A stretch of 64,000 nt of DNA from an uncultured Oscillospiraceae bacterium (GCA_963557105.1 CAUWCX010000008.1:143-64142); one strand, 5' to 3'; positions 7,677-30,540 are shown, numbered from the stretch's first letter. Notes: generated by a model from the sequence alone, not told the origin. Numbers and translations are program-made.

Positions 7677-7679
7677 GGT

Positions 7680-8972: not shown

Positions 8973-9166
8973 GCCCCATCACCTCCAATCACCATCAGCA
9001 CACCGGCCGCCAGGGCCAGCACGCCGCCGGTGATCCACCCCGCCGCCGGGGCCAGCAGGGCAGCTCCCGTGGTGATGGCCACAGCCCCCACCAGCAGCAG
9101 CACCTGGGGCGCGATCCGCCCCCACAGCTGCCCCAGGCTGGGGCGGTCACGCTGTTTCTTGTCCAT
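8969..9166 (-). CDS. 65-aa small membrane protein between terL and portal
   Basis: ATG 9164-9166 after AGGAG. MDKKQRDRPSLGQLWGRIAPQVLLLVGAVAITTGAALLAPAAGWITGGVLALAAGVLMVIGGDGA (two TM helices). Confidence 0.5.
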   Translation of the reverse strand: MDKKQRDRPSLGQLWGRIAPQVLLLVGAVAITTGAALLAPAAGWITGGVLALAAGVLMVIGGDGA

Positions 9167-9281
9167 CCGTACTCCTTTCCCCTCCCGGGGCTGTGCCGGA
9201 CAGGGGGACCTTGCGGTCCCCGCTGCCAGGAGGAAAGATCCGGGCAGGCCCGCCCCCTGCCCGGCACAACCCCGGGGAAAC

Positions 9282-11027
9282 TTAAAGACTGAAATCCGGC
9301 CGCTCCAGGGCCTCCGCCAGTGTGGCGGGCCGCTGCTGGCCGATGGTGGCCGTGGCCATGGCAATGATCCAGGCCACCAGCATGTCGATGCGGCCAATGG
9401 ACCGGTTTTTCATGGGCTTGATGTTCTCGTTGCCATCCGCCGCCATGCGCACATTGCCGAAGCACCACCGCAGGGCGGTGTTGTGGACGTGGAGCATCTG
9501 GTGGCCGCGGATGAGCCGCTCCAGCTCCTTGGTGGGCGGCGACATGTGGAGCATGGTCTGGGGGATCTCCACGATCTCCAGCCCGTCCTCCCCCAGCCGC
9601 TGGGTGAGGCTCCGGCTCATGTAGGGGTCCACCCCCAGCAGCTTGAGGTCGAAGGCCGCCCGGGCCTCCTGGATGGTGGACTCTACCATGGTGTAGTCCA
9701 CCATGTCCCCGGGGCAGAGGGTAATGAACCCCGCCCGCGCCCAGTCCCGGTAGGGGACATGGTCCCGGACCTCCGCCTCCACCGCCGTGTCCGCCGGCCG
9801 CCAGCCGTGGACCAGGGCCACCCAGGTGTCCAGCCCCTCCTGGGGTGGGAACAGCAGGGCCAGGGCCGTCAGGTCCGTGGTGGTGGAGAGGTCCAGGCCG
9901 CCGTAGCAGGTCTTGCCCCGCAGGCGCGCCAGCCACGCTCCCCGCTCCCCCTGGGGGGATGGCCCCCACTGGGTCTTGTCGTAGATGGTCAGGGGAATCC
10001 ACCCCACGGCCTTGGTGGAAATCCACTGATTGAGCCGCAGCCAGCGGAAGTTTCGCTCCGCCGCCTCGCTCTGCTTGGCCGCCCGGGCCTCCGCCCGGAA
10101 CTGGCGGGCCTTGATGGTAACCCCGAAGCTGGGGTTGCAGGCCCGCCACACCGCCTCGTCCCAGATGTCCAGGCCGGCGATGCGGTCCGGGTCGTCTCCG
10201 GTGAGGGCGCTGACCCCGTACATGATGGGGCACCACTGGGGGTCATCGTCGTCCATGGGCCGCTCCGGCTCCCCCCGCCGCCAGGCCAATATGCGTCGGC
10301 ACTTCTCGTGGATCTCCCACCCGATGCTCCCCCGGTCCGGGTCGTCTCCGGCGGTGGTCAGGACGATCACCGCCTGCTGCCGCCGGGCGGCGTCAGATCC
10401 CACGGTGAGGACGTCCCACAGCCGCCGGTTGGGCTGGGCGTGGAGCTCGTCGATGATGACGGCGGAGAACGAGAAGCCGTGCTTGGTGTCGGCATCGGAG
10501 GAATAGACCTTCATCACCCCGCCCCACCGGGTGCGGATCTCCCGGGTGCTGTCACGGCACCACACCAGGGGGTCGTGCTCCGGCTGGCCCAGGGCGGTGT
10601 GCTCCACCATGTACTTGGCGCACTGGTAGATAATGTCCGCGTTGCTCTTGTCCGCGGCGAAGATGCCCACCTGGGGGCGGCTCTCCCCGTCGTAGACCAG
10701 GTGGTACAGGCCCAGGGCCGCCGCCAACTCGCTCTTGCCGTTTTTCTTGGGGATCTCCGTGTAGAGGAATCGGCGATACCGCACCCAGCGGCCGTCCTCG
10801 TCCTCCACCTGCACCCCGTAGAACTGACCAATGGCCTCCAGCTCCCAGGGCAGGAGGCGGAAGGGCTGGCCCGCCCACTCGTTCTGGCCGAAGACCAGCA
10901 GCCCCAGGAACTCCAGCACAGCGTCCACGGCCTCCTGGCTGTAGCGCAGCTTCAGCCCCTCCTCCGGGGCGGGGACCAGGATGCCCTCCCCCAGCTCCAG
11001 CAGCACGGGGGCGGTCACTGCGTCCAC
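9282..11027 (-). CDS. terL: Phage terminase large subunit
   Basis: 581 aa. Contains FLYTEIPKKNGKSELAAALGLY (Walker A-like) and a downstream nuclease region. Position is terS > terL > portal. Confidence 0.9.
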   Translation of the reverse strand: MDAVTAPVLLELGEGILVPAPEEGLKLRYSQEAVDAVLEFLGLLVFGQNEWAGQPFRLLPWELEAIGQFYGVQVEDEDGRWVRYRRFLYTEIPKKNGKSELAAALGLYHLVYDGESRPQVGIFAADKSNADIIYQCAKYMVEHTALGQPEHDPLVWCRDSTREIRTRWGGVMKVYSSDADTKHGFSFSAVIIDELHAQPNRRLWDVLTVGSDAARRQQAVIVLTTAGDDPDRGSIGWEIHEKCRRILAWRRGEPERPMDDDDPQWCPIMYGVSALTGDDPDRIAGLDIWDEAVWRACNPSFGVTIKARQFRAEARAAKQSEAAERNFRWLRLNQWISTKAVGWIPLTIYDKTQWGPSPQGERGAWLARLRGKTCYGGLDLSTTTDLTALALLFPPQEGLDTWVALVHGWRPADTAVEAEVRDHVPYRDWARAGFITLCPGDMVDYTMVESTIQEARAAFDLKLLGVDPYMSRSLTQRLGEDGLEIVEIPQTMLHMSPPTKELERLIRGHQMLHVHNTALRWCFGNVRMAADGNENIKPMKNRSIGRIDMLVAWIIAMATATIGQQRPATLAEALERPDFSL

Positions 11028-11245
11028 GGCGATCCCTCCCCCTTGAGGACGATCCGCCGCAGCCGCCGGGGCGGATCACCACCCATGGCCTGCACCAGCA
11101 GCAGCCCCGGCTGGGGGCCGTCCACCTGGGGCCGTACCCGGGCGGCGCCGGTGACCACCAGACGGCCCAGGCACGCCGGGCATAGGGCATCCGCCGGAGC
11201 CCGGCCCTCGTACACGTCGCCGCAGTCGGCGCAGACGAAGCGCAT
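11015..11245 (-). CDS. Small zinc-ribbon protein
   Basis: ATG 11243-11245. MRFVCADCGDVYEGRAPADALCPACLGRLVV.. (CxxC..CxxC). Overlaps the terL start by 13 nt. Confidence 0.45.
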   Translation of the reverse strand: MRFVCADCGDVYEGRAPADALCPACLGRLVVTGAARVRPQVDGPQPGLLLVQAMGGDPPRRLRRIVLKGEGSPWTQ

Positions 11246-11253
11246 CAGCTCTC

Positions 11254-11742
11254 TCACGCCTGCCGCCTCCTCTCCAGCAGCTGCACCAGGGGGTTGTCCT
11301 CCGCCCCCACGGGTTTCTCCGGCACCACCAGGCGGCACCGGGCGGAGATAGTGAGGCCCAGATCTGTGGCGCAGTCCCGGGCCTGCTTGAAGAGGCGTGC
11401 CTGCACCCGGCCCCAGCCGTCGGCGCTCTCCAGGTCCCCGTCCCCCAGGGCCCGGTTGACCTGGCCGGTGGCGTAGAGCCACTCGGCCCTGGCCATGCAG
11501 TAGGTGGCGATGGTCTCCCCGTCCAGCCGGGTCACCATGGAGGGCATCAGGGCGATGAGACCCTTGGATACCCGGTTGAACTCCTCCCGCTGGGCCTTGG
11601 GCAGCCAGTCCGGCGGCGTCAAGCGCTTCACCGGCTCCGGGTTGCGGACCTCCCCGGCCTCCCGGGCGGCCCGCTCCGCCTTACTCAGATGCTTGGCCCC
11701 CCGGCCTTCAATGACCTCCAGGGGAATACGCTGTCCTGCCAT
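11254..11742 (-). CDS. terS: Phage terminase small subunit (P27 family-like)
   Basis: 162 aa immediately upstream of terL. PDWLPKAQREEFNRVSKGL..TIATYCMARAEW is P27-type. Confidence 0.8.
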   Translation of the reverse strand: MAGQRIPLEVIEGRGAKHLSKAERAAREAGEVRNPEPVKRLTPPDWLPKAQREEFNRVSKGLIALMPSMVTRLDGETIATYCMARAEWLYATGQVNRALGDGDLESADGWGRVQARLFKQARDCATDLGLTISARCRLVVPEKPVGAEDNPLVQLLERRRQA

Positions 11743-11845
11743 ATAGTCACCTCCTCGTATAATTAAAAAGCGCCAGGGCCGAAGGGCTCCATCTCATAGG
11801 GAAACAAACTGAACCCCCAGGGGCACTACCGGTACGGAACAAACG

Positions 11846-11885
11846 GAATAGCCGCAAGCTATCGTGTGATGGCTTGCGGCTATTC
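11846..11885 (-). terminator. Terminator hairpin after the 1755-aa helicase gene
   Basis: GAATAGCCGCAAGC (11846-11859) pairs with GCTTGCGGCTATTC (11872-11885). On the minus strand it is followed by CGTTTGTTCC. Confidence 0.55.
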
Positions 11886-11888
11886 ATA

Positions 11889-14800
11889 TTATAGGCTGTC
11901 TAAAATCGTTTTTAATGCATAGGGTTTAGCATATTTCAAATGCGCATCACTCACAAAAATGGTGTTTTCTTCTATTGGCTTTGTCCACATAGCCGGATAT
12001 ACTACTACTTTCTTTTTGCTATAACACCCCTCTGCCCAAACTGATTCGTGATTAACATCGATATGTATGCCGGAAATCTGGAGAATTTGTTCCAAGGATT
12101 TCAAAAGATACTGCTGTTTTTCGTATGGGATTGCAGATACTCTTGCCCCTGTTTCTCCCCAGTTCAATAAATCAAGTGCGGCCTTACGATCGAGAACGCT
12201 GTGGATGTATTGATTTCGATAGTGCTTTAGACACCTGTGGCAAGCACTGTCACAGGTACAGCTTTCGAGAAGTTCTCGAGTTTTGGTAAGTAGCTGTCGA
12301 ATAGAGGATTCAATGCTAACAGCATAACCTGCACCACTTGAAAGGCTATCATACAAGTAGATATCAACGAAATCTCCATTGCGATTTTGTCGAACACGAA
12401 AACCAGTCACAAGCTCTGTAAATTCAATGTCCAATTCCTGACATGCTGCCAAGCGCAGGCCTTCTGCAAGAGACTGTCCAGCACGGTTAAGCCAAGAATT
12501 CCTGGTGGGATTAATATCGATCTGCTGTCGATCCAAAGCAAATTCCAGAACAAGCATATCTGTAACAAAGTCATATCCAAGATTCACATTGATTGTATCG
12601 CTATGCTTGCAACGTGTTTTGATGAATTTGGATCTATACGGACGCAAAACATCCTTAAGAACCGCGGGGTCATCTCCGGGCATTGCAGCACCGCAGTCGC
12701 AGCAGATTGTGAATCCCTTACCACTAACACCATTGTTAAGCATGATGATTCGCTGATTGGGACGAACAGCCATTCGGATGTTGGCACATCCATTAACCGC
12801 CGTAACATCATCTGCATCGGGTAGTGTGGAATATAGAGGTTGCTGAGTTGCTGAGTATTCTTCATTCAATTGTGCCGTTTCAATGGATGTGGCATTTCGT
12901 GGTGCGAATCCCCATGGGCGTAGCATTGGCAACATATTTGTCAATGCTTTATTGCCGCAGAAAGGACAAGTATCAGGGTTATCCTCTTCTAAGCCAAACC
13001 AACCACACTGACTGCAGGTACGAATGCTTTTTCGGTAGCTTGCATCCTGAATAAATGCTTTGGCTGGAGATGCAGCAGTTCTTTCGCTCCGCTCTCCTCC
13101 GGGATAATACAAACCACCAATCTGGTAGGTCGTCTTATCAACAACAATCGCTCTGCCAGGCGCATATTCACCAATTGCAACATCCAACCCTCGTTCAACC
13201 TGATATTTTACCTTCCCGCTGACATCGGAAATATATGTGCTAACAACATTTTTGGGGAAAGAATAGGTAGGTATAACACCCTCTTCATAAAGCGCATCCA
13301 AAAGCGATTTTTTCCCAGAATCACTGCTATCATCTGTTTCAAACAATTCAGGATGATCATCTCGTTTTTGCTTCAGCGCCGACAGAGATTTTTCAAGTTC
13401 ACCTTTGTAGCTATCTAATGCACCTTTGGAGCTAACGGGCACAAGAATATCATCTTTGCTAATTTCAAAGATTGCCAAAAAGCTGCTGAAAGGCTGTAGG
13501 TGTTCATCCAGAAATTCAATGGCAGGGATAGCATCCAAACTGTTAGACTTCTCTCTCAGATAGGTTTGAAGTGCAACCATACCAAGGTGGCGCTGGGTAA
13601 TTTTCTCACTGCTGATATCAATCCACGGTCTTCTGGGATTGCCTCTGAACATTGGTACTGGGTTGGAAAAGTACAAGGAATCATGGGGGCCATCCTCGCA
13701 AAAAGTAACAATCGTAGACAGACTTGAACCGCGACGGCCAGCACGACCAGCACGTTGCTGATAATTCTCACGCATAGGAGGAATATTGCGCAAACCGACA
13801 GCAACCAACGATCCGATATCGATACCTACTTCCATTGTAGTTGTGCTGCTCAGAATATCTACAGGCGCCTCGCCATTCTGCAAAAAATCCTGGAAGCGAA
13901 GTTCATACTGCTCTGTCCTGGACCAGAGTTCATCCCGCTGATCTTTATGGGAAAGTTGGGCAGTATGTTCTTCAGTATCAATTACACGAATGGTGTCACC
14001 TTGAAGCGCATCCTCAATGGGCTTGCGCCAAAAAGCCAATGCATCAATTTCTTCCGTTGTCATGGGATGAATCTTTTCGCACTGACAACTTGGGCATTTC
14101 CCCTTTAATAAATACGGCGTGAGCTCTGAGCAGCGTTCACAACGGAACCACGTGTGTTCTAAATCAAAACGCGGTTTTATACGAGAAAGATCAATATAAT
14201 ACTTTCCGTTGGAAGACGAACCTTCGTCCATAAATGTTTCCCGCAAAATCTGGCTCCACTTTGCAGCAACAGAATCATTATCGCTCCATCCCATTATTTC
14301 GCGGATATCGGTCGAAAACTTTTTGCTCTTATCAATGCCATATCCCACATAGTTTGGCCGCACTTTTTCACGAATCACATCCGGGATGGTATGTCCAAGA
14401 ATCACGGAAGTATCACAAGTTGAAAGAATCCATGCATTAAAGAATTCCATGAATTCTTCCTCACTTATTTCGATGCCTGCTTCCTCTAACGCATCAAGTG
14501 CATCCCATTTTGCGGCATCCGTAGGCTCTATCCAACTGAGGGCTGAATCAACCAGCGTATTATATCCTCCACAGTAAAAACGAATGAGCTGTTCCTTCAT
14601 TTGGGTAGGCGCATTATCAATAGTAAAACGAGGAGTGTACTGTTGCCCACGTTTCTTTGCACGTGTGTAATTCTTCAGTGCCTGTGTTCCATGCTCAATT
14701 AACCGTTCTCGTTGTTTTTCTGTCTCGCTATCATGGAAAATTTGAACATGATGCTCCACAGCTACCATTGCAAAGTAGTCATAGAAATAGTTCATGGACT

Positions 14801-17156
14801 GCTCTGCAACTTCGTGTTCCATTCGATCAATGGCAAGCACCGCAAGCTGTCGGGCCGCAGTCATATCAGATGCGTCAGACATATCTCTTGCCAGCTTAGC
14901 TGCACGTTGGCGGCTATCTGAGAAAAGCAGAACTTTCCGCCCCTCGTTTGGAAGTCGATCGGGATCGCCTGTTTTCCCTGGAACCGCAGGTTGAGCTTGG
15001 AATTGCGCTTTAATCAGATTGAAGAAGGACTGGTTGCCTCTTGTATTAAAAGAGGTCAGTTGCATCTTAGATAGTTCATGCCGACAATGCGGACAGGTGG
15101 AAAATGTCAGAATGTCCGGTCGGGCCTTTGCTGTGAAGCCGCTATAATACAGCTTTCTGATGCCCTGCTTTCCATCCAAGGAATCATCAGAAAAGTCGAT
15201 GAAGCCGCTTTGAACATCTAAGTAGCAAGGCGAAATTTTATTCTGTCCTTGACGTTCCGGCAATCGATAACCTGCAGACGGAATGAAAAGATGTATTTCT
15301 TTAACCTCATCTTCATTTATCATACCAGGTTGATGCCAGAGGTATGTACGTCTTCTGGCTTCAAAATCTTGCTTCAGCACAAAACCTCTGAAGAAAATAC
15401 TACCGCACCGGCGATCATTGTATAACTCATAAATTGTGCTTCCGCATTCTTTGCAAGTAAGATTACCATCCGAAAAATAGACCTCACCCAATGTTAATCC
15501 GTTTTCCGTGTGCGAATGAGGACATTCTGGATTAGTACAAGCGTAAACGCCCTTGATTCCACGAAAAAGCATATGCATTCTTGCTGGAAACAAAACACTT
15601 CCACTTTCGCTTCGCGCCAAAGGTGCGATCGAAAGCATAACACTGACAGCGTGCAGGGCATCTTCTAAACTATTATCAGGAAAGATAGACTCCGCTAATT
15701 CTTGTAAAGAGACTGCTGTTCCGCGGCAAAGTTTGAACATTTGGCAGAATGGTACATAGTCTACCAGATGGTCGTATAGCCATTGGTATGCATCTTCAGA
15801 AGAAACGAATGGAGCAGGACTATTGGCAATACCTGTCCAAAATCCATTGAGTGCCATAAGGCGTTCCGGATCATCGCCCTCAAACGCATCCGGAAGAAAT
15901 TCTTTAAATTTACTGAAGGGAATATGAACTGCACTTCCGCTGCCTATTTCCTCTCGTTCGCCAGTAAGATAACAGAACGGATGCATGTCGTCGGATGCAG
16001 TCAATTCATTTGCAAATGTCCTGACGGCCTTCCTGTCATTCTCGTCATTGTTGGGCATACTTGCAGTAGTCAATATAAATTGAACTCTACTGCGATTAAT
16101 GCCCAAACGGTGGAATAAGCGCCGAATGAGCAATGATACCTCGCCGCCTGCAGAACCACGATACATATGCGCTTCATCAATGACAAATAGAAGCTTATTA
16201 TTCGGATCTGCATTTAGCCATGCCTGAGTATCTGACCATATTTTATGCTCTCTTGGCCGAAGAAGCATATATTCAAGCATGGAGTAGTTTGTAATCAAAA
16301 TATCGGGGCAGAATTGCTGCATTTCAAAACGAGTTACCAGTTCTGCATCCTCATCGTTCGGAATATGTTTTCCGTTATAGAGTTTTTCAAGAAATTCATC
16401 AAAATTTTCTTTGGCCGGTAGTTTTCCGTCCTTAATGAGTTTCTCTAAAAAAGCTTTTTCTTCGTCGTTTTCAGGATTGACCATACGAGAATATGTTGCC
16501 GCAAGTGAACGGTCCTCACTACGTCGGGGCTCCTTACCAGCATAAGGAGTTCTGCCGGTATACATGCCGAATTGAGGCCGGCGGGAATTATTTCCACATG
16601 CGGTGCGGAATATATTTATAAATCGGTGGTCTGGATCGCCAATCAAACGACGCAAACGACTAATCTGGTCAGAAACCAGGGCGTTCATAGGATACATGAT
16701 AATCGTTCGGACACCACGCATAGCCCAACTATCAGGGTTATTTCTTGCTTCTGAAGCAAGTTTTGCCATCAAGGGCCACATAAAGCATTCTGTCTTACCA
16801 GAGCCTGTACCTGTTGACACGAACAAATCCTGACCTTCAAATGCCGCTTCCAAAGCGGAAATTTGGTGACAGAAAGGTGATGGATATACGCCAAGATTTG
16901 CATCTGATAGCGCCTTAAAATAGTCTTTCAGCCAATCAGGTAGCTTGGGAGATAACTGAATTCCGTTTGGCGAACTCTTGTAGGCGGGTGATGATTCAAC
17001 ATACGGTTTTTGATAAAGAACACCTTCTTGATTCAGCTTATTTTGTGCAGCAGACAGCAAGATAGGTGACTTCCCAAAATATTGAGACTTTATATAGTTT
17101 TCCAGAGCTTCACGCAGTTGCAAGTGAACTCCGTTTGCACCATTGGACATAATCAT
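11889..17156 (-). CDS. Giant SF2 DEAH helicase with inserted zinc ribbons and C-terminal DUF1998/MrfA-type Zn-binding domain (DruE-like)
   Basis: Motif I GTGSGKT (nt 16791-16811), motif II DEAH (16167-16178), TAS, LLFSDSRQ, motif VI QQRAGRAGRRG. Cys pairs: CTNPECPH..CKECG, CPHCRH, CERCS..CPSCQC, CSQCG..CPFCG, CCDCG..CKH. C-terminal CTCDSACHRCLKHYRNQ (12231-12263). The second ATG (17150) has the better SD spacing. Confidence 0.85.
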   Translation of the reverse strand: MIMSNGANGVHLQLREALENYIKSQYFGKSPILLSAAQNKLNQEGVLYQKPYVESSPAYKSSPNGIQLSPKLPDWLKDYFKALSDANLGVYPSPFCHQISALEAAFEGQDLFVSTGTGSGKTECFMWPLMAKLASEARNNPDSWAMRGVRTIIMYPMNALVSDQISRLRRLIGDPDHRFINIFRTACGNNSRRPQFGMYTGRTPYAGKEPRRSEDRSLAATYSRMVNPENDEEKAFLEKLIKDGKLPAKENFDEFLEKLYNGKHIPNDEDAELVTRFEMQQFCPDILITNYSMLEYMLLRPREHKIWSDTQAWLNADPNNKLLFVIDEAHMYRGSAGGEVSLLIRRLFHRLGINRSRVQFILTTASMPNNDENDRKAVRTFANELTASDDMHPFCYLTGEREEIGSGSAVHIPFSKFKEFLPDAFEGDDPERLMALNGFWTGIANSPAPFVSSEDAYQWLYDHLVDYVPFCQMFKLCRGTAVSLQELAESIFPDNSLEDALHAVSVMLSIAPLARSESGSVLFPARMHMLFRGIKGVYACTNPECPHSHTENGLTLGEVYFSDGNLTCKECGSTIYELYNDRRCGSIFFRGFVLKQDFEARRRTYLWHQPGMINEDEVKEIHLFIPSAGYRLPERQGQNKISPCYLDVQSGFIDFSDDSLDGKQGIRKLYYSGFTAKARPDILTFSTCPHCRHELSKMQLTSFNTRGNQSFFNLIKAQFQAQPAVPGKTGDPDRLPNEGRKVLLFSDSRQRAAKLARDMSDASDMTAARQLAVLAIDRMEHEVAEQSMNYFYDYFAMVAVEHHVQIFHDSETEKQRERLIEHGTQALKNYTRAKKRGQQYTPRFTIDNAPTQMKEQLIRFYCGGYNTLVDSALSWIEPTDAAKWDALDALEEAGIEISEEEFMEFFNAWILSTCDTSVILGHTIPDVIREKVRPNYVGYGIDKSKKFSTDIREIMGWSDNDSVAAKWSQILRETFMDEGSSSNGKYYIDLSRIKPRFDLEHTWFRCERCSELTPYLLKGKCPSCQCEKIHPMTTEEIDALAFWRKPIEDALQGDTIRVIDTEEHTAQLSHKDQRDELWSRTEQYELRFQDFLQNGEAPVDILSSTTTMEVGIDIGSLVAVGLRNIPPMRENYQQRAGRAGRRGSSLSTIVTFCEDGPHDSLYFSNPVPMFRGNPRRPWIDISSEKITQRHLGMVALQTYLREKSNSLDAIPAIEFLDEHLQPFSSFLAIFEISKDDILVPVSSKGALDSYKGELEKSLSALKQKRDDHPELFETDDSSDSGKKSLLDALYEEGVIPTYSFPKNVVSTYISDVSGKVKYQVERGLDVAIGEYAPGRAIVVDKTTYQIGGLYYPGGERSERTAASPAKAFIQDASYRKSIRTCSQCGWFGLEEDNPDTCPFCGNKALTNMLPMLRPWGFAPRNATSIETAQLNEEYSATQQPLYSTLPDADDVTAVNGCANIRMAVRPNQRIIMLNNGVSGKGFTICCDCGAAMPGDDPAVLKDVLRPYRSKFIKTRCKHSDTINVNLGYDFVTDMLVLEFALDRQQIDINPTRNSWLNRAGQSLAEGLRLAACQELDIEFTELVTGFRVRQNRNGDFVDIYLYDSLSSGAGYAVSIESSIRQLLTKTRELLESCTCDSACHRCLKHYRNQYIHSVLDRKAALDLLNWGETGARVSAIPYEKQQYLLKSLEQILQISGIHIDVNHESVWAEGCYSKKKVVVYPAMWTKPIEENTIFVSDAHLKYAKPYALKTILDSL

Positions 17157-18181
17157 TCCTCCACAAAGCAGTAACCCATTGATTCCAACTCATGTTTGAA
17201 CATAGGATAGATTTGCCTTGCCATCATTCTTGTAAAGACTTGGGGCGTTTTTGATGTAAAATCATATCGCACAGGCCAGCTATAGAGTTTGAAGAAGTTT
17301 TCTTCCGAAGGTGGCAGACGATAACCAAGTTTAATTTCTACCAGACTTCCCCTTGCCTTCGTTTTGATTTCTGGAAGTGTTCCATGTTTTTTTAGAAGTG
17401 ATATTGCAATCCTTCTATATTCGCCGTGGTTGCCTGGAACATTCGAAAAATAGTCCCGCATTCTCCATTCTGGAATCGGTGTATTCAGAAATACCCCATT
17501 ACTGTATCGATAAAATACAAAAATTTTATTTGGTTCACCATATCTTGCAAGGGATATATGGTCATTTTTTTCGGGAATCTGTTGCCAATACCCCCATTTA
17601 AATGGAGGATCAAGCCGCAGAAACTCTGAGTTATCTGGCCATTCTATTTGTTCCCATTCGCAATGCGCCAACAGTTCTTCGAGATAGCTTTCAAACGACT
17701 GCTTCTGCAAACCAAACATTGATGATATTGTCCTGTCGGAAGTTGAAGTTTGAACGGAATAGAAACCCAATCCGCTCATAAATAACTTCAAGTCAGGTGA
17801 AATACCTCTGTGAAGAACAAGATCCCCATTTCCTCCAGTTGCAAGAGCGGTTGGGGATATTTGATAAGCGGAATGATAAAAGAACCCATTTCGCAGATAG
17901 ATAGAGTACATTTCCTCAATCAAATCCGTCTTGTCATGCGGGAGGAGAAATCCAATCTTCGGATAAATGCCTTCATAAGCATCAAAAATCTGGCCAATTC
18001 TGCTTTTGAAGTGCTGAATAGAAACTGAACCTCCATCCTCGGTGTGATCCCAAAGCGAAGCGAGAGCCATTTGCCCAGCAACACTATAAACGACCCGACA
18101 AACCCATTCGTTGTCATCTGACTGAGGAATATTTAATTGCCTTCCAATTGAAACAATTAGGTCGTTTATCATATCGTTCAC
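17153..18181 (-). CDS. Hypothetical protein, 342 aa (operon partner 3)
   Basis: GTGA overlap with the upstream stop, ATGA overlap with the helicase start. An alternative ATG lies at 18172. No motif I can name. Confidence 0.7.
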   Translation of the reverse strand: MNDMINDLIVSIGRQLNIPQSDDNEWVCRVVYSVAGQMALASLWDHTEDGGSVSIQHFKSRIGQIFDAYEGIYPKIGFLLPHDKTDLIEEMYSIYLRNGFFYHSAYQISPTALATGGNGDLVLHRGISPDLKLFMSGLGFYSVQTSTSDRTISSMFGLQKQSFESYLEELLAHCEWEQIEWPDNSEFLRLDPPFKWGYWQQIPEKNDHISLARYGEPNKIFVFYRYSNGVFLNTPIPEWRMRDYFSNVPGNHGEYRRIAISLLKKHGTLPEIKTKARGSLVEIKLGYRLPPSEENFFKLYSWPVRYDFTSKTPQVFTRMMARQIYPMFKHELESMGYCFVEE

Positions 18182-20226
18182 TCTTCCTCAATATATCTTG
18201 CAACTTCAGCTTTTACCGAGCTGGAGATTCCGCTCTCGCCTTCAATAACATCCTTTAAGACATCCAATCTCCCGGTAAGTACGCAGAGAGGAAGCACACC
18301 AAAGAGCAGTTCCAAGTCCTTATCTTTTGCGGGATTCTCCAAAATGCATTTTGCATCGGACAGGACACGAGTTAACTGGCCCAATAGGAGTTTGCTAAGG
18401 CCTAAACGCTTAAATGCAGATATCCGGAGAGACTGTTTTTCCTCAGAAACATATGGTTGGAACTTCTCAGCGCGTTTACTTGGCCATGTCTCGAGAGCAG
18501 GTAAACTTCCTATAAAACATTCACTCAGGACAGGGAGCATGTAATTATAAAGGCCTTTCGGCTCAATAAGCATATCCTCGACATATGGATGGGTCCAGAT
18601 TATCTGCTTTTTGAGTCTTGTAAACTTCTGCGGTAATGCATCCGTCCACCCTTTTCCGAACATATTTTGAACCGACACAATAGAATCGTCAGCCTCGCTG
18701 ATTCTTTCCACTATAGAAAGGTCACATTCATCTCCTAAAGTCAATTGTCCTGCTCCGTTTGCGTACATCGAAACAGACAGCACCTCAGCAATATCCTGTC
18801 CCCCAGGGCCTGCAATCAAAGTTGGCACATTGTTGATATGGGTTGCATACAGAAAAGCAGTGAGCATTGAGCAGAAGTCTGGTTCAATGCCCAACGCACA
18901 TGACAAATTCTGATAGATTGCATCATATTCATTGCGCCAGCTTTCTGCGAGTTCAATATCCTCATCAGAATATTGGCCACTGGTACTGCTGTATTGCCAT
19001 GAGGCAGGGGGATTCCCATACGGCAAGGTTGCATTTGACTGAGGCAGAAAAACAGAAATATCAGCAATGAATCCTGCCATATCTTTTTGCGCGTCAGCAA
19101 TTTTCTGGCGCACTGCGACCAGCGTTTCTTTTCCAATCGATTCATATTGCGCTATCTCTGCAAGTAACCGATCAAGTTCACCTTGTTTTGTGGCAATTTC
19201 TGCAAGTAGTTCACTATGCTGCTTTTTTGCAATGGATATTGTTTCTTCCATTTCTGAAACTTCTGCCTCAGCTTTGGCAATTTCAGCAGCATGAGAATTA
19301 TGCCATTCCACGGATACGGCTTTTTCGCATAATTCTCTTAATTCATCGTGATTCTTTGCAATTTCAGCCAACACATTAACATCGATATCGCCGACTTTAA
19401 TCAATGCATCTGCTCGATTAACAAAATCATCAACTGTCTGTTTTGCTTGGTCCAGAGTACAATTTAGTTTTTGAACAATCGCGTCGTACAAAGATTCTCC
19501 GCAAATCTTCTCAAGAAGAAGTTTGCAATGTTTCCATTCAGCCTTGGTGGCACCAATACACTCCTTAAACAAAGGCCATGTGGTGCGTTCAAGAATGAGC
19601 GTGCGAATAACCTCGTCTGTATTTCCTATTGAAACATATCCAGAAGGCTCTCCCACCTGAAGTGTTTTTAGAAATCTTAGGTTACGATCATCCCAATTAT
19701 AGATATCCCCGGAGGAAATTGTGTAGCTTGGCAGGGAGTAGACAGTTTCCGAAAGTTTTGCACATCGATCCGAAATGTTGAACTCATTTGCACGACACAG
19801 TACGCCTGCGAACTGCCCCCATTTAGGTTCATAGCAAAAAAGTGTATCGCAAAAGTAAGCTTGTGTACGAGCAGTTCCATTCTGAAGTTGTTCAACCACT
19901 TCGTCTAAAGACTTTGCCATAAGAACTACTACACGTACCGGCGAGTAGTCTTTGACATAGTACGACTGGACATAGTCAATTGCTGGGTTATCCCTATTAG
20001 GAATTGCTGTCCACTCCCAAATACCGACCGTTCCAAGCGCAGTAGGCCCATCGTTGCGGTACAGTCTATCTCTGTTTTCAAAATAGTTATCCGTCCGTTC
20101 CGACTTGAATGGTGTATGTAAAATATCATCTTCCACATCTGCTAAACGGTTCAGCCATATACGCCCTTCGTAATCTACTGTAATGTAGCACAGTGATGTG
20201 AAGGAAACTTCATTGTCAATCATCAT
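18178..20226 (-). CDS. Hypothetical protein, 682 aa, with central coiled coil (operon partner 2)
   Basis: Heptad-like segment AEIAKAEAEVSEMEETISIAKKQHSELLAEIATKQGELDRLLAEIAQYESIGKE. LIAGPGGQDIAE resembles a degenerate P-loop that lacks the Lys. Start overlaps the upstream gene by 8-11 nt. Confidence 0.7.
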   Translation of the reverse strand: MMIDNEVSFTSLCYITVDYEGRIWLNRLADVEDDILHTPFKSERTDNYFENRDRLYRNDGPTALGTVGIWEWTAIPNRDNPAIDYVQSYYVKDYSPVRVVVLMAKSLDEVVEQLQNGTARTQAYFCDTLFCYEPKWGQFAGVLCRANEFNISDRCAKLSETVYSLPSYTISSGDIYNWDDRNLRFLKTLQVGEPSGYVSIGNTDEVIRTLILERTTWPLFKECIGATKAEWKHCKLLLEKICGESLYDAIVQKLNCTLDQAKQTVDDFVNRADALIKVGDIDVNVLAEIAKNHDELRELCEKAVSVEWHNSHAAEIAKAEAEVSEMEETISIAKKQHSELLAEIATKQGELDRLLAEIAQYESIGKETLVAVRQKIADAQKDMAGFIADISVFLPQSNATLPYGNPPASWQYSSTSGQYSDEDIELAESWRNEYDAIYQNLSCALGIEPDFCSMLTAFLYATHINNVPTLIAGPGGQDIAEVLSVSMYANGAGQLTLGDECDLSIVERISEADDSIVSVQNMFGKGWTDALPQKFTRLKKQIIWTHPYVEDMLIEPKGLYNYMLPVLSECFIGSLPALETWPSKRAEKFQPYVSEEKQSLRISAFKRLGLSKLLLGQLTRVLSDAKCILENPAKDKDLELLFGVLPLCVLTGRLDVLKDVIEGESGISSSVKAEVARYIEEE

Positions 20227-21775
20227 TATCCCTCCCAGGATTATTTTGAATGGTTTTCCTGAGCAAATTTAAAGCTGTACGGGAAATTTCGCCTCGCCGC
20301 AAAGCCTTGCAGAGCCATTTTTGCGTTTGGGGATATTTCGAGAATTTACTGACAAAACTTCCAACTGCATGCGTTACAGGAATCATCGGGCCAGAGCAAG
20401 AACTCAATTTTTTGACAAGCACAGCATCCAGCAACATAACATCCATGTTGACGGTTTCCTGCTCAAAACGAATGGAGCGAATGTAGTCGCAGCCTTGATA
20501 AAAATGTATCTCTGTGCCAAATGATAGTTCGTCGATTGTTAAATGCTCCTCGCCAGAAAGCTTGTAGATATATTCGGTCTTACCGTTTCTTTGAACCACA
20601 GCCTTCCCATCATACGGGCAAGAAACTGATATGCACTTTAATTTAGGGAGTTTTGCATAGCTCTCTTCATTTAGCGTGTTGCCAGAATGATCAGATATAA
20701 TTATTGCTGGTAACGGCGCCTTTTTGCGCAGGGGTTGCTTTACCAAATAGGAGAATCCCAATGCTCCAGACTTTCCAAGTGAGATTAACTGTTCTCTTTC
20801 CCTGGTATAGAGCTTGTATAATTTCCCGTCTTGAGTACCCAGCACATTCGCAGTTGCGGGGTATGATTTCAGTTCGGCATCATCACCGCATAAATAGAAG
20901 TAAAATTCCGCTGAGTTGTGGTATATAAAATACGGATCCTGGATGTATGCTGGCCATATAGGATAGAATTTGGTTGGTTTTTCAGTTAAGAAAATAGCAT
21001 ATTTAAGGAAAAACTTTGCGGAGCGTTCTGAAAACTTTTTAATGCGAATTTTATATAAATACCAACTATTGAAAGAGTTTGCGCGCGTTTTGGCTATTTC
21101 TATTGCTTCGATATCTGCAGGAAAAGTATATATTGGATGCCGTTGCAATAAATAATAGAAATTTCCGGCATACGCCTTTCCGCCAGATTGTAGAATCTGG
21201 CCAGTTCGTCCGTCAAAGAAGGAGCCAGCCTGGTTGATTCCCGGTATATTGTTGGACCAAAATCTTCTTAATTCGGGATTAGCATTTATGTATTCAACAC
21301 AGTAAATCTGGCTTGGAATAGAGCCAACACTCAAGTAGGTGGTTCCAATCCGCTCAATTCGCTCAAACGAGTACTCATAAACTTGGTGTGAATCTCCGGC
21401 TATCTTAATTTTGTCGCAGTGTGCCTTGTTGTCTGGAGGGTAGAAGAACCCTAATTGTAGAGAAAATATCGATCCTGTTACAACAAGGCGCAAAGGCATT
21501 ATATGGCTGTTAAGTGCTCGTAGCGATCGACCGTAGTTTGGATCAAAAGAGGCTTGGCGTTCGTCGCATTCTTTATTGGGAGAGGCCGGATCATGACGGA
21601 AGTGTTGAACATTCATACCAGGGACGGTAAGTAAAACATTTTGTGCGCATAATTCACACACAAAATGGCCGCTTCGTGCTGATGCACCATAGGGATACAT
21701 CTTGCAAGCCTCTTCTACTGTGATACGACGATATCCAATTTTAGAATCCCATACGCATACATGAGTTAATGGCAT
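20216..21775 (-). CDS. Hypothetical protein, 519 aa, with N-terminal Cys/His zinc-ribbon-like motif (operon partner 1)
   Basis: N-terminus ..GHFVCELCAQNVLLTVPGMNVQHFRHDPASPNKEC.. (CxxC ... HFxH ... C), reminiscent of CoiA-type N-termini (memory only). The rest is unrecognisable. Confidence 0.7.
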   Translation of the reverse strand: MPLTHVCVWDSKIGYRRITVEEACKMYPYGASARSGHFVCELCAQNVLLTVPGMNVQHFRHDPASPNKECDERQASFDPNYGRSLRALNSHIMPLRLVVTGSIFSLQLGFFYPPDNKAHCDKIKIAGDSHQVYEYSFERIERIGTTYLSVGSIPSQIYCVEYINANPELRRFWSNNIPGINQAGSFFDGRTGQILQSGGKAYAGNFYYLLQRHPIYTFPADIEAIEIAKTRANSFNSWYLYKIRIKKFSERSAKFFLKYAIFLTEKPTKFYPIWPAYIQDPYFIYHNSAEFYFYLCGDDAELKSYPATANVLGTQDGKLYKLYTREREQLISLGKSGALGFSYLVKQPLRKKAPLPAIIISDHSGNTLNEESYAKLPKLKCISVSCPYDGKAVVQRNGKTEYIYKLSGEEHLTIDELSFGTEIHFYQGCDYIRSIRFEQETVNMDVMLLDAVLVKKLSSCSGPMIPVTHAVGSFVSKFSKYPQTQKWLCKALRRGEISRTALNLLRKTIQNNPGRDNDD

Positions 21776-21796
21776 CCCTCGTCACCCTCGTTCTTG

Positions 21797-22030
21797 TTAC
21801 AACGACTCGGAATTGTAAGCCGATGTGTCATCTCTGATAAAATCCATCATTTCTCCTGCATTACAATTCATAACATCTGCAATTTTAAGGAGAACCGATA
21901 GATTTACTTCTTGATTTTTGCGAAGTTTAGTGAAAGTAGCAGAAGAAAGTCCTGCACGCTTGCGAAGCTCAGCTTTGCTCATCTCTCGTTCAGCGCAAAG
22001 GACCCATAATTTTTTGTAAGTTACTTTCAT
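21797..22030 (-). CDS. XRE-family helix-turn-helix transcriptional regulator (77 aa)
   Basis: MSKAELRKRAGLSSATFTKLRKNQEVNLSVLLKIADVMNCNAGEM is a classic Cro/C1 HTH. Its stop is 21 nt upstream of the 519-aa gene. Same AT-rich composition. Confidence 0.85.
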   Translation of the reverse strand: MKVTYKKLWVLCAEREMSKAELRKRAGLSSATFTKLRKNQEVNLSVLLKIADVMNCNAGEMMDFIRDDTSAYNSESL

Positions 22031-22246
22031 GGTTTCACCCCGAATAAGAAGGATTTATAAAATTATACTACTACGAACCACATCTGTTTTCAACATATTT
22101 CGCTTTTTCACGAGTTGTTTCGATTGTATAAATTAAAGTTATCGCGAATCTAAACGCTTTTTGCTTTACGAGTGATTTTTAAAATATTTTGTTGGCTATT
22201 CCCCTCGTCCTGTGATATTGTGTGTTGCTACCAGGAGGTGCAACGC

Positions 22247-22567
22247 ATGAAAACACGACTTAAGACCCTGTATGACTGCTTCTATACCCCGCCTGAGTTT
22301 TCGGAGCAGAAGCAGGAAGTGAAAGAATGCCACCAGGCACTCATTCAAGTGCTGGAGAAGCCGGAACGGCGGCTGGTACTACGAATCATGGATGCCCAGA
22401 GTTTGATGGCAGAGGAACGCTCCATCGACAGCTTTATCTCTGGATTTGAGCTGGCGTGGCAGCTCTCCATGGAACTGAATCAATTTGAAAAAGAGCGCTC
22501 AGTCTCTCGCTGTACGGCGAAGAGATCGGGCGCTCTTTCCATGTCCGAAAAGGAGGAAGCAACATGA
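22247..22567 (+). CDS. Small conserved mobile-element protein (106 aa)
   Basis: ATG 22247 after CCAGGAGGTG. MKTRLKTLYDCFYTPPEFSEQKQEV..FISGFELAWQL. Resembles small proteins common in clostridial ICE/phage accessory modules (memory only). Confidence 0.55.
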   Translation: MKTRLKTLYDCFYTPPEFSEQKQEVKECHQALIQVLEKPERRLVLRIMDAQSLMAEERSIDSFISGFELAWQLSMELNQFEKERSVSRCTAKRSGALSMSEKEEAT

Positions 22568-23025
22568 AGAAACAAATCATCCCTACTGCAGCGTTTGCCG
22601 CCTGTCTGGCACTGTGTGCCGCTGTGTGGCCGCAGAAGCAACCAGCCGAGGCAATCCCCGCGCTGCCCACGCCAGCTGCTGTAATCGCCACACAGCCCGA
22701 AGTTCCAGAGATAGCAGAGATGGAAGAAGTCATACCGCCAGAGAAAGAAAAGGCGGAAGCAACACAGCAGGAACTGGTCGAGGAAACTGACATTGTCCCG
22801 GAGCCATCGCCTGCTCAAGCGCCCCCAGAGAGCGAAGTACAGGCTCCCTCTGAACAGGATGCCACACCACAGCAAGAACCGGAGCCTACCCCGGCACCTG
22901 ACAGCAAGCCGGACAACATGGTCTATGTGCCAGGCTTCGGCTGGATAGAAAGCCAAGGACCCAACCATGCGGAATACGCCGAGGACATGTACGAGAACGG
23001 TAGTAAAATCGGGATCATGGGATAA
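22564..23025 (+). CDS. Secreted Pro/Glu-rich protein with conserved C-terminus (153 aa)
   Basis: Signal peptide MKKQIIPTAAFAACLALCAAV, low-complexity P/E/Q linker, then C-terminal MVYVPGFGWIESQGPNHAEYAEDMYENGSKIGIMG. ATGA overlap with the previous gene. Confidence 0.6.
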   Translation: MKKQIIPTAAFAACLALCAAVWPQKQPAEAIPALPTPAAVIATQPEVPEIAEMEEVIPPEKEKAEATQQELVEETDIVPEPSPAQAPPESEVQAPSEQDATPQQEPEPTPAPDSKPDNMVYVPGFGWIESQGPNHAEYAEDMYENGSKIGIMG

Positions 23026-23070
23026 ATGAAAAGCAGTGCGGTATCAGGTCAAAGTCTGGTGCCGCACTGC

Positions 23071-24036
23071 TTATTCTGTTTCCTGCTTCAATGCGTCGCT
23101 GAATATCTCATGGACGTGGATCAGCGAAAAAACTTCACAGAGAAACCGCTCTGCCAGTTCTTTTTCGTCCAGCCAGGTGGTCTGCGGCGGCACATAGTAA
23201 CCGGAATCAGCCTCTGCATCCGCTCTGGCTTTGTGAATGGCTTTCTGGATGGAGAGCCACTGACCGTAAGCGCCGCCTTTCAACTGTTTTCTCAGTTTCC
23301 GGATGGCAGCCTTATACGCTTTCTCCGCCCCGCTGGGGCCGTTATAGTTGAGCCGGATGGCCAGTTCCTGAAAAGTCGTGCCCTGCTCGTTGGGCTGACC
23401 GATCCCCAGATAACAGCGCACCAGATTTAGTTCTCTGGGGCTCAGCACCTCCTCCATGCGCTGCAGGAGCAGCGTCCGCCGCATGGAACGGTCGTAGGCC
23501 CTGGCCGGGTCGCCGCCATATCCCGGGTCAAAGACGCCCTCGCCCAAACACTCGACCTGAAACACGGTACGGTATTCTTCCAGCAGACGCCTGGCGACTT
23601 TGGCGGAGACAGTCAGCTTCTCTTGGATGGCCGGCAGAAGATCTGTTTCGATGTCCCGCTCATGGGTGGCATAGAGGAAAGCCACCTGGCGCAGCTGGTG
23701 GTAACGGTCCAGCGGGAGCGACAGAGAAAAAGAACCTTGGGCGGCGCAGTCCCGCATGGCCGTCTCAATGGCGGGGGTCGCATAGGTCAGCAGCTTGGTC
23801 CCCATAGATGGGTCAAACCGCCCCGCTGCATCCAGCAGTGCCAGCGCCCCCTCCTGCTTGAGGTCGTCCACCAGAAAATCCTGAGAAAACTGCTCGCAGT
23901 AGCTTGCGGCCAGCATGGTCAGGTATCCCTCGTTCTGGGAGAGCAGGAGCGGGGCGGCCTGCGGATCGCCTTCCTGTATGCGTTGGGCCAGCTGCTCGTT
24001 GCTGGGGCAGGGAGTGTCACAGTGGTACATGCTCAT
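23071..24036 (-). CDS. Sigma-70 family RNA polymerase sigma factor
   Basis: Region 2-like DDLKQEGALALLDAAGRFDPSMGTKLLTYATPAIETAM and region 4-like TFQELAIRLNYNGPSGAEKAYKAAIRKLRK. Confidence 0.8.
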   Translation of the reverse strand: MSMYHCDTPCPSNEQLAQRIQEGDPQAAPLLLSQNEGYLTMLAASYCEQFSQDFLVDDLKQEGALALLDAAGRFDPSMGTKLLTYATPAIETAMRDCAAQGSFSLSLPLDRYHQLRQVAFLYATHERDIETDLLPAIQEKLTVSAKVARRLLEEYRTVFQVECLGEGVFDPGYGGDPARAYDRSMRRTLLLQRMEEVLSPRELNLVRCYLGIGQPNEQGTTFQELAIRLNYNGPSGAEKAYKAAIRKLRKQLKGGAYGQWLSIQKAIHKARADAEADSGYYVPPQTTWLDEKELAERFLCEVFSLIHVHEIFSDALKQETE

Positions 24037-25157
24037 GGCCGGGCCTCCCGGGCAAGGCGCGCTCTCGCCTGGGTATAGATCGCTTCCTGCTCCATATCGT
24101 GTGCATAGCCGCTGGCGGCATAGTCGTTATCCATGAGCGCCTTATCCCGCAGGCTCTCCGCTACATACAGCGCTTCATTGCGCAGCTCGTCGGAGATCTT
24201 TCCTCTCTGGTGGTGCTTGCGGATGGTGTTGGTGCGGGTGGTAAACAGGCGGTAGACCGGGTGCTGTTTGTTCTGCTCCTTCTGCCGCATCATGGCGCCA
24301 TACTGCCGGCAGGTCATGCGGGGATCCTGGGGAGCAATGCCATCGCAGTATTTCGGCATATGGCCGTTGGTGGTGAGAAAGTATGTTCCGCAGCCACAGC
24401 ACCGGCTGGGCGCATGGCCGTGCTGCAGTCCGTTCATCAGGTCAAAGATGTAAAAGCTGATGGCGTGGTCAAAGAAATACCGGTTCACAAATACGGTTTC
24501 CTTTTCCTGTTTCGGGTGTCGGGCAAAGACATAGGAGGATCTCAGGTTCGGTGTGATGGTGAATGGCTCAACGTCCGGTACCGGCAAATCACGCATCATA
24601 TCCCAGAACCATTCGCTGTTGAAGCAGTCGTGGGCGGCCATGGCGAAGAAGGTCTCCGTCCGTTTCTTCAGCCGCCGCAGATAGCCCTCCTCAAAGTATC
24701 GTGCCGCCACGGCAAAGTGCTGGATGCCCAGGGGGATGCTGAAGGCAGCGACCAGATAGCGGAAGAAAAATTCCCGGACAGGCGAAGCTGGCTTCAGCAG
24801 GTCGTTGTGGGATGCCGGGGAAAACATCACCTCCAATGTGTGCTGCTCCTGCCCTTTGTCCATCAGGCTGTACGGTGGACATTGCCACAGGGCATCCAGC
24901 AACTTTTCCAGAGAGGCGCGGGTTCCGTCCAGCATTTTGATAAATTCACCTCGCCCGGCTAAGGCCAGAGCCTCCACCTGATGGCTGATGGCACCGCCGT
25001 GGGTGACCAGTTCCCGTATGGTCTCCTCGGGGACATTCAACAGTTCGGCGGCAAAGTGGCCGGCTGGGTAGACGGTCTCGTTGAAAAAGATCTGATCCTG
25101 CCAGACATCCATCGTCAGGTGCAGAAAATTGTTGTTCTGTTGGATCCCCAGTGGCAT
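24033..25157 (-). CDS. Conserved hypothetical protein co-transcribed with the sigma factor (374 aa)
   Basis: 4-nt overlap with the sigma-factor start. Contains the Cys cluster SRCCGCGTYFLTTNGHMPKYC. I recall similar proteins next to sigma factors in clostridial mobile elements. Confidence 0.6.
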   Translation of the reverse strand: MPLGIQQNNNFLHLTMDVWQDQIFFNETVYPAGHFAAELLNVPEETIRELVTHGGAISHQVEALALAGRGEFIKMLDGTRASLEKLLDALWQCPPYSLMDKGQEQHTLEVMFSPASHNDLLKPASPVREFFFRYLVAAFSIPLGIQHFAVAARYFEEGYLRRLKKRTETFFAMAAHDCFNSEWFWDMMRDLPVPDVEPFTITPNLRSSYVFARHPKQEKETVFVNRYFFDHAISFYIFDLMNGLQHGHAPSRCCGCGTYFLTTNGHMPKYCDGIAPQDPRMTCRQYGAMMRQKEQNKQHPVYRLFTTRTNTIRKHHQRGKISDELRNEALYVAESLRDKALMDNDYAASGYAHDMEQEAIYTQARARLAREARP

Positions 25158-28291: not shown

Positions 28292-28418
28292 CCCTCTCAC
28301 CCCCTTTCGGGCTTTGCTTAAGTACATGATAAGTCCTTAATAGTGAATTTGTCAATCATTAAATCCACTATCAAGGAAGTTTGTGCAATCTTACAACTTT
28401 CTTTAATTGGTGATACCT

Positions 28419-29042: not shown

Positions 29043-29087
29043 CGTGTCCAAATTGGACACGCAAAATAAGAAAGGGGTAGTTTCAAA

Positions 29088-30170: not shown

Positions 30171-30176
30171 TCTAAC

Positions 30177-30519: not shown

Positions 30520-30540
30520 CCCGGGCCACCGCCGCACAGA

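Follow-up and report, generated by a model that had tools for sequence, protein, structure and literature searches.

What kind of system is encoded by an AT-rich, five-gene operon that ends in a giant helicase gene and lies in the DNA of an Oscillospiraceae bacterium (GCA_963557105.1)? The stretch analysed here is a window of 64,000 nucleotides (nt) from this genome; all coordinates are positions in that window, and the operon, hereafter the island, lies on its minus strand. A sequence-only reading had described it as a Druantia-like helicase with unrecognisable partners, a candidate novel anti-phage system. Our analysis points instead to a diverged type I Druantia operon without DruA, arranged druB'-druC'-druD-druE, preceded by an XRE-type gene and carried as prophage cargo, a reading to which we give a probability of roughly 78%. 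As reportedly defined by Doron et al. in 2018, type I Druantia consists of DruA-DruB-DruC-DruD-DruE.

A listing of open reading frames (ORFs) reproduced the five genes at the positions and sizes (in amino acids, aa) that had been proposed:

21797-22030, minus strand: XRE gene, 77 aa
20216-21775, minus strand: druB', 519 aa
18178-20226, minus strand: druC', 682 aa
17153-18181, minus strand: druD, 342 aa
11889-17156, minus strand: druE, 1755 aa

The ORF coordinates agree with the suggested translational coupling, a 21-nt gap being followed by overlaps of 11, 4 and 4 nt. The AT-rich character of the island is likewise evident in 1-kb windows, with a G+C content of 0.40-0.45 at 12-22 kb against 0.62-0.70 at 1-12 kb and 0.50-0.58 at 22-27 kb. 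Given that intact homologues of the island genes are found in hundreds of genomes and metagenomes, the five ORFs can be regarded as real genes.

DruE and DruD

Judged by its sequence, the 1755-aa protein is a full-length type I DruE, a superfamily 2 (SF2) helicase of the YprA/MrfA family with an MZB zinc-binding domain. It matches the PADLOC profile DruE1 (PDLC00013) with an E value of 0 and 1728.7 bits, residues 3-1751 aligning to positions 3-1770 of 1776, and other DruE profiles reach at most 639 bits, with DruE2 and DruE4 far below DruE1. On the same DruE1 scale the canonical Pseudomonas putida DruE scores 2332 bits and a haloarchaeal DruE 1569 bits. Identity to canonical DruE is 32% over 1816 columns. 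Pfam recognises DEAD, Helicase_C and MZB/DUF1998 (residues 1565-1643), in line with the claim of a helicase with a C-terminal DUF1998 domain, and the protein carries the motifs GSGKT at 118-122 (K121) and DEAH at 327-330 together with eight CxxC motifs. Its relatives in the PDB are 9tu7 (1.6e-75), 9wae and YprA (6znp).

Directly upstream of druE, overlapping it by 4 nt, lies a 342-aa gene whose product we identify by profile matching as DruD. PADLOC DruD1 (PDLC00008) aligns to it almost end to end (E 2.6e-10, residues 5-319 against positions 1-315 of 338), and its counterparts in two related loci, L024 and L022, match the same profile over the full length at 6e-12 and 4e-8. The protein has no Pfam match and no sequence-profile match in the PDB. 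The idea that DruD might be a McrC-like nuclease was dropped because no PD-(D/E)xK or other nuclease signature occurs among its invariant residues. With DruE1 and DruD1 both matched in full, the suspected connection to Druantia is upheld.

DruB' and DruC' as remote homologues

The canonical type I loci used for comparison came from P. putida pKF715A (L001), R. solanacearum pUW163a (L002) and three metagenome contigs (L027-L029). All five show the order A-B-C-D-E and are matched strongly by DruA1, DruB1, DruC1 and DruD1 (PADLOC). Their DruA proteins measure 409-413 aa, DruB 558 aa (L001) or 477 aa as annotated (L002), DruC 623-625 aa and DruE 1841-1851 aa; DruD has 371 aa in L002 and is annotated at 260 aa in L001. 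The size analogy that had been noticed between the island and type I B/C/D/E thus holds, the same order being found in L001 and L002, and the order and coupling of the island genes are those of type I.

Could the helicase nevertheless have been recruited into a truly new multi-gene system, whose middle proteins are unrelated to DruB, DruC and DruD? Direct searches with the 519- and 682-aa proteins of the window leave room for this idea, as neither has a significant match of its own among Pfam, NCBIfam and PADLOC Dru profiles. The 519-aa protein gave no Pfam and no usable NCBIfam match, and PADLOC DruB1 touches its N-terminus at E 0.025, a further DruB1 match being at E 0.014. Library scans of the 682-aa protein yielded coiled-coil noise only (LmuB, JetC), and pairwise BLASTP against canonical DruC was empty. 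Even hhalign, when fed shallow alignments of two to three canonical sequences, returned E values of 0.086 and 0.14; deeper alignments were needed.

Family alignments changed this picture for DruB'. When 27 DruB' members (lowest identity 24%) were set against 30 canonical DruB sequences (lowest identity 34%), hhalign aligned the two families with 90.5% probability and E 1.3e-6 over 310 columns (32-367 against 18-371), and pairwise BLASTP between DruB' and DruB gave 22% identity over 287 collinear residues (E 0.002). An invariant Trp-Pro (IWP motif) is common to the aligned region of both families. The N-terminal 30-70 residues of canonical DruB carry a CoiA_N/DUF7830 zinc ribbon (1.7e-6, above the gathering score), and the same domain appears at the same position in six DruB' members (3e-5 to 0.03). 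The 519-aa protein is therefore best described, on these alignments, as a remote DruB homologue. Its AlphaFold2 model, with a predicted local distance difference test score (pLDDT) of 72, shows a zinc ribbon, mostly beta-sandwich domains and a C-terminal helical domain. Sequence profiles found nothing in the PDB, and Foldseek searches of the PDB with the model returned only generic tandem immunoglobulin-like/beta-sandwich matches (template modelling (TM) score 0.13-0.2); because these are generic, no function is assigned. A tblastn search with DruB' gave no plasmid match and, among phage genomes, only two uncultured faecal phage contigs.

For DruC' the similarity is shorter. When 59 diverse family members were scanned singly, 20 matched DruC1 (PDLC00006), the best at 6e-10, and 5 matched PDLC00007. 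Alignment of the family to three or five canonical DruC sequences gave hhalign E values of 2.3e-4 and 5.3e-5 over 159-164 columns, all within a stretch that runs from the latter half of the coiled coil into the beginning of the globular domain behind it. Together with a shared architecture, this central homology identifies the 682-aa protein as a remote DruC homologue. In its model (pLDDT 79) an N-terminal beta domain (about 1-200) is followed by a helical, coiled-coil region (203-390), which holds a 78-residue helix at 313-390, and by an alpha/beta domain (about 410-680). The best Foldseek matches are the AAA+ proteins BrxL, Hsp104 and Lon (E 2.6e-3 to 1e-2, probability 0.93-0.96), and AGPGG at 471-475 resembles a Walker A motif without its Lys-Ser/Thr, G473-P474 being invariant in the family. 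The C-terminal domain might accordingly be modelled, weakly, as AAA+-like with a degenerate Walker A. Sequence profiles matched DruC' in the PDB to coiled coils only, such as keratin and Vipp1.

The specificity of the two remote relationships was examined with hidden Markov models (HMMs) of the DruB' and DruC' families, searched against 723 ORFs of at least 80 aa from eight DruA-containing loci. The top five hits of the DruB' model were exactly the five DruB ORFs and those of the DruC' model exactly the five DruC ORFs, in both cases in the same register. That the HMMs pick out the positional orthologues, that DruD matches DruD1 end to end, that DruB' shares 310 columns and its motifs with DruB, that a third of the DruC' family matches DruC1, and that gene order and sizes follow type I all speak against a new system, which we consider largely refuted and highly improbable. 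The description of the partners as unrecognisable consequently did not survive, since by profiles all three are homologues of DruB, DruC and DruD. Novelty had been made to depend on how far the profiles of these proteins would cover the middle proteins: coverage is full for DruD and extensive for DruB' (about 60% of its length), and it is partial for DruC' (about 25-30%).

The DruC' family is large, with 909 clusters at 50% identity reaching E<=1e-3 and 552 reaching 1e-30 or better; the best 150 of these 909 matches in a representative library were listed, and all lie within the family. A metagenome scan with canonical DruC returned three loci.

About half of the DruC' family bears an additional N-terminal extension of 200-260 aa, as in P0245, P0236, P0219, P0222, P0232, L003 (11589-14324) and L004 (1787-4462). 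In P0245 this extension contains a Macro domain, a fold that binds or hydrolyses ADP-ribose (residues 19-129, E 7e-31), and PF01661 is precomputed for other homologues with the extension; the extensions of P0196, P0277, P0296, P0311 and P0230 have no Pfam match. The pattern suggests a swappable N-terminal module, perhaps a sensor or effector add-on.

Absence of DruA

Neither a DruA HMM nor phmmer found DruA in a six-frame translation of the 64-kb window (E<=10). The HMM, built from five sequences, is sensitive: it recovers DruA in three loci outside its training set at E<=1e-163. It found nothing at E<=1 in the related loci within L003-L026 and only chance-level matches (E at least 1.8) in L030-L035, and PF14236 (DruA, formerly DUF4338) is listed for no neighbouring gene of the related cassettes. 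These searches, with PADLOC and Pfam, agree with the sequence-only reading that the island lacks DruA, a methyltransferase and a PLD gene. A 614-aa gene upstream of the cassette in L031 was considered as DruA and rejected, being the C-terminal part of a helicase-type protein that we read as type I HsdR. Because DruA was looked for and is absent while four of the five components are present, the island is not a canonical type I system and is better called a DruA-less variant. No description of a DruA-less type I clade was found in the literature; Bell et al. mention an "unappreciated diversity" of Druantia types I and II, and the available part of that paper does not describe such a clade (PMC12458937).

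Might the system be complete all the same, its DruA (or a protein with an equivalent function) being supplied in trans from another part of the host genome? Our view covers 64 kb of this host and 10 kb on each side of the related loci, which leaves space for a distant partner. DruA is nevertheless directly upstream and co-directional in L001, L002, L006 and L027-L029, and it is divergent or separated in L005 and L007; in every canonical locus that we fetched it lies within about 1 kb of the next system gene. No PF14236 gene occurs in any cassette neighbourhood, and because the cassette passes from genus to genus with phages and further kinds of mobile element it could not rely on a chromosomal partner. 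We regard a DruA acting in trans as very improbable.

Among the DruA-containing relatives, L005, on a haloarchaeal plasmid, has a divergent 705-aa DruA with proteins of 413 and 608 aa, the latter matching DruD1 only locally. L006 (Nitrosococcus) carries, where druB and druC would stand separately, a single gene of 955 aa, probably a fusion, and in L007 (Leisingera) a 2094-aa DruE is accompanied by a DruA of 659 aa and surrounded by two ATP-binding proteins and a NERD protein. By their sequences these relatives are varied, and "type I" appears not to be one fixed architecture.

Conservation and mobility of the cassette

The druB'C'DE cassette is conserved in 22 loci, and a further four are truncated at contig ends or rearranged. 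Its proteins measure about 505-520 aa (B'), about 670-700 aa or, with the N-terminal extension, about 890-950 aa (C'), 334-342 aa (D) and about 1750-1860 aa (E). Carriers include Oscillospiraceae, Eubacterium pyruvativorans, Phascolarctobacterium (Negativicutes), a Lachnospiraceae metagenome-assembled genome and several metagenome contigs; the closest relatives of the island are found in Lawsonibacter, Pseudoflavonifractor, Flavonifractor and other Oscillospiraceae.

Two of these loci, L010 and L013, share with the window only positions 11874-21775, at 97% identity, that is, from the hairpin behind druE to the start codon of druB'. L015 has 11841-22154 in common with the window and thereby also includes the XRE gene and the region ahead of it. 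From these limits it follows that four-gene and five-gene forms exist and that both are mobile; the four-gene cassette moves between hosts as a discrete unit, with or without the XRE gene. Its neighbours elsewhere comprise mobile-element genes (a relaxase/resolvase, Mu and IS21 transposases; a prophage in the window) and defence genes: a PLD-SNF2 DUF3427 helicase with HNH and MazG, GmrSD with EcoRI-type methylases, and a gene read as type I HsdR.

Within the clade (window compared with L004, L022 and L024) DruE retains 60-72% identity, against 30-48% for DruB', 26-42% for DruC' and 32-50% for DruD. That DruE changes slowly and its three partners fast would agree with diversifying pressure on the accessory proteins, and it fits the pattern expected of sensor components in an arms race. 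Because of this fast divergence, at a distance from Proteobacteria at which DruE itself retains 32%, standard profiles no longer pick up B and C.

Such divergence might also be read as decay, the island being a non-functional remnant of a canonical type I system that lost druA. DruA is indeed absent, and some relatives are broken (L012, L020, L011 and L023). Nevertheless, of the 22 complete cassettes 18 have all four ORFs intact, as does the window, and lesions are restricted to the other four; the intact ORFs still overlap despite divergence of B, C and D down to 26-32%. ORFs that stay intact while B, C and D diverge require long-term purifying selection without DruA. The family is also very large, and the cassette has spread recently between genera, at 97% identity. 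Decay of this kind is thus very unlikely as an account of the island.

The lesions themselves are of several kinds. L012 (Flavonifractor sp. An306), at 11403-13913, has a 5.4-kb internal deletion corresponding to window 12779-18245, which fuses the N-terminal part of druC' to the MZB part of druE and removes druD and most of the helicase. Fusions of this type recur in metagenomes, where P0130, P0131, P0136, P0176, P0210, P0223 and P0235 carry PF09369; their recurrence suggests repeated inactivation of the cassette. L020 (Flintibacter faecis) has an insertion of about 7 kb inside druC' (11942-19102), druD is split in L011 (5251-6296) and druB' in L023 (4845-6406).

The XRE gene and signals around the operon

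The 77-aa protein is an XRE/Cro-C1-type helix-turn-helix protein, as had been recognised (Pfam HTH_26, E 5.2e-19); it resembles VanU with a score under the NCBIfam cut-off. Of 21 related loci, 9 have a gene of this type immediately ahead of druB'. It is missing from L010 and L013, where similarity to the window ends exactly at the druB' start codon, and loci without it have no other conserved gene ahead of druB'. This distribution would make the XRE gene an optional regulator of the cassette.

Two features flank the operon:

22031-22171, minus strand: AT-rich intergenic region upstream of the XRE gene, presumed promoter/operator
11846-11885, minus strand: stem-loop directly past the druE stop, RNA fold -29.2 kcal/mol

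In the upstream region a sigma-70-like site, TTGAAA-17-TAGTAT, is found at 22093-22065 on the minus strand, and short inverted repeats pair 22053-22063 with 22123-22133 and 22060-22068 with 22126-22134. On this basis the region is presumed to hold the operon promoter and operator. The strong hairpin that had been noted after druE is confirmed (-29.2 kcal/mol, z -6.4), none of 200 shuffles being equally stable in the minus-strand RNA fold. The U-tract behind it is weak (CGUUUGUU), and the consensus terminator scan did not flag it. It sits at the border of the DNA common to other hosts, where shared cassettes stop at 11821-11874, and it is probably a transcription terminator or an RNA-stabilising hairpin. 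An Rfam scan of the island gave zero matches.

Prophage setting

Phage structural genes, a repressor and an integrase surround the island, in agreement with the view of it as prophage cargo. To its left, on the same strand, lie genes for the small terminase (11254-11742), capsid (5717-6988) and tail sheath (2033-3229); to its right follow DUF6809, DUF6550, sigma-70-like and DUF6076 genes (22172-25157). Within the prophage the cassette separates the small terminase gene from the early region; the far end of this prophage was studied at 28407-36424:

28407-29042: CI/LexA-like S24 repressor, lysogeny end
31062-32195: integrase with zinc ribbon, abutting tRNA-Pro and two tRNA-Ser (32311-32800)
32965-34146: second integrase, beyond the tRNAs and beside an Mrr gene

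The two nearby restriction-type genes that had been pointed out are both present, namely an HSDR_N-domain protein (29088-30170) in a patch of 42% G+C and an AT-rich FtsK-gamma-Mrr_cat gene (34396-35307). The second integrase and the Mrr gene seem to make up a small islet of their own that uses the same tRNA hotspot. Opposite the minus-strand structural genes, a plus-strand ORF of 1390 aa (7179-11351) without Pfam match lies in sequence of 65-70% G+C; it is most likely a shadow ORF of this high-G+C sequence and no gene. A DUF6809 gene adjoins the cassette in the window (22172-22567); in L003 (4285-4545) one is found some 5.5 kb upstream of the cassette, where the context is otherwise different, a mobile element with a relaxase. 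Possibly DUF6809 is a marker for one family of cassette-carrying mobile elements in Clostridia.

Such a setting invites the thought that the cassette serves the prophage or element itself, in replication, recombination, repair or competition between elements, and provides no anti-phage defence to the host. The YprA/MrfA helicases include DNA-repair enzymes (PMC12458937; compare the match to PDB 6znp), and the cassette invariably lies on a mobile element or close to one. Against this, DruE belongs to the DruE1 defence clade, not to the repair clade, and the cassette is also found outside prophages beside restriction-modification, GmrSD and PLD-helicase genes. Type I Druantia, moreover, protects E. 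coli strongly and broadly (10.1101/2024.04.14.589459), and a prophage that excludes competing phages is itself engaged in defence. We consider a purely self-serving role unlikely, if somewhat less so than the other alternatives.

Possible mode of action

Homology and genomic context would assign the cassette a role in anti-phage defence. Type I Druantia gives its phage protection in E. coli by an unknown mechanism, and a system-dependent change of the host pattern of N6-methyladenine (m6A) has been reported (10.1101/2024.04.14.589459). Type III is the one type for which a mechanism has been worked out; its DruE is an ATP-driven 3'-to-5' DNA helicase acting on single-stranded or forked DNA, and the system clears phage without killing the cell (10.64898/2026.05.12.722862, 10.64898/2026.05.13.724758, 10.64898/2026.05.13.724313). 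No active nuclease or methyltransferase domain was detected by Pfam or NCBIfam in the five island proteins.

We propose the XRE protein as a repressor of the operon that acts at the AT-rich stretch ahead of it. DruB', DruC' and DruD could form a fast-evolving accessory module that senses the invader and recruits or licenses DruE. As in type III, DruE would then be a motor that loads on single-stranded or forked intermediates of phage replication. The invader's end might come through unwinding and stripping by DruE alone, or host nucleases might finish the process. Phage DNA replication would thereby be blocked and the cell would not be killed.

Several points weigh against our reading of the island as a DruA-less type I Druantia with a defence role, and they account for its remaining uncertainty. 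DruA, a defining type I component, is found neither in the window nor in any of 26 related loci. Similarity to DruB stops short of the C-terminal third, the last approximately 150 residues being unaligned, and that to DruC spans only about 160-210 residues, part of which are coiled coil. The AAA+ assignment of DruC' leans on weak Foldseek matches (E about 3e-3, TM about 0.19). Promoter-like and terminator consensus sites are no commoner around the operon than in shuffles. Defence by this variant is argued from homology and context only, and the type III mechanism may not be transferable to type I: the dimerisation domain of type III is reportedly missing in type I DruE and in other types (10.64898/2026.05.12.722862), and the only nuclease reported for type I DruE is an inactivated Vsr-like one (PMC12458937).

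A further and more tentative idea, to which we lean less than to its converse, is that DruB-C-D-E forms the self-sufficient core of multi-gene Druantia, DruA being a dispensable accessory for regulation or self-protection that can be replaced by an XRE protein or by nothing. If this were true, a large, unannotated Gram-positive branch of Druantia would work without any DruA-linked function, and phage DNA would be discriminated purely through the fast-evolving B/C/D module. The Macro domain on DruC' in many relatives would then hint at the sensing of, or resistance to, ADP-ribosylation.

Few defences tested in E. coli are as strong or as broad as type I, in which DruA to DruD still lack an assigned role. 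A natural clade that relies on DruB-C-D-E alone amounts to a ready-made "deletion experiment" showing the core parts. The contrast in rates and the variable N-terminal domains of DruC', Macro among them, point to the likely site of phage recognition. With more than 900 clusters, the DruC' family is common in Clostridia of human and animal guts, and the compact four-gene cassettes of the clade lend themselves to reconstitution. Since only DruD and DruE are recognised, standard tools under-call Druantia in Firmicutes.

Comparison with known systems

DISARM, in which the helicase DrmA and the DUF1998 protein DrmB are separate and are joined by a methyltransferase and a PLD or helicase partner, resembles the cassette in combining an SF2 helicase with MZB/DUF1998, and weak DrmA matches fall on Helicase_C (E 3e-10, 67 residues). 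In the island, helicase and MZB are instead fused in one protein, and there is no methyltransferase, DrmC/PLD or DrmD/E; the fusion and the missing methyltransferase and PLD rule out membership.

Membership of Druantia types II, III and IV is likewise ruled out, as DruM, DruF, DruG, DruH and DruL are missing. For types II and IV, PADLOC found no DruM, DruF, DruG or DruL match in the five proteins. Type III has a homologous helicase (PADLOC DruE3 profiles match at 1e-98 to 1e-162), and DNA-helicase-centred, non-abortive action is probably common to both, by analogy. The cassette differs from it in lacking DruH, a protein of about 1100 aa (none by PADLOC and no gene of such size) and a Pfam PLD domain, and in having three accessory proteins instead of one.

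Bell et al. 2025 (PMC12458937) treat Druantia types I and II as "Type IV CoCoNuT" and report that they encode an inactivated McrB-like CnuB homologue with a coiled coil. The cassette is similar in its YprA-family helicase, and DruC' may resemble that homologue, since behind its long coiled coil comes a putative AAA+-like domain whose Walker A would be dead. It is dissimilar in that DruC' has no McrB/CnuB-specific match, its AAA+ fold matches being weak and generic.

From canonical type I Druantia the island differs in having no DruA, an XRE gene standing upstream in about half of the related loci, and in DruB and DruC proteins beyond calling by PADLOC, Pfam and NCBIfam profiles. Its cassette is hosted by Clostridia and Negativicutes, whereas the canonical examples that we fetched are from Proteobacteria. 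The likenesses are an overlapping B-C-D-E order with similar sizes, a full-length DruE1 and DruD, a DruB with a CoiA_N-type zinc ribbon and about 310 alignable columns, a DruC with a coiled coil and then what looks like a degenerate P-loop domain, and carriage on mobile elements. The cassette is thus not a new kind of system and overturns nothing; it extends a known family.

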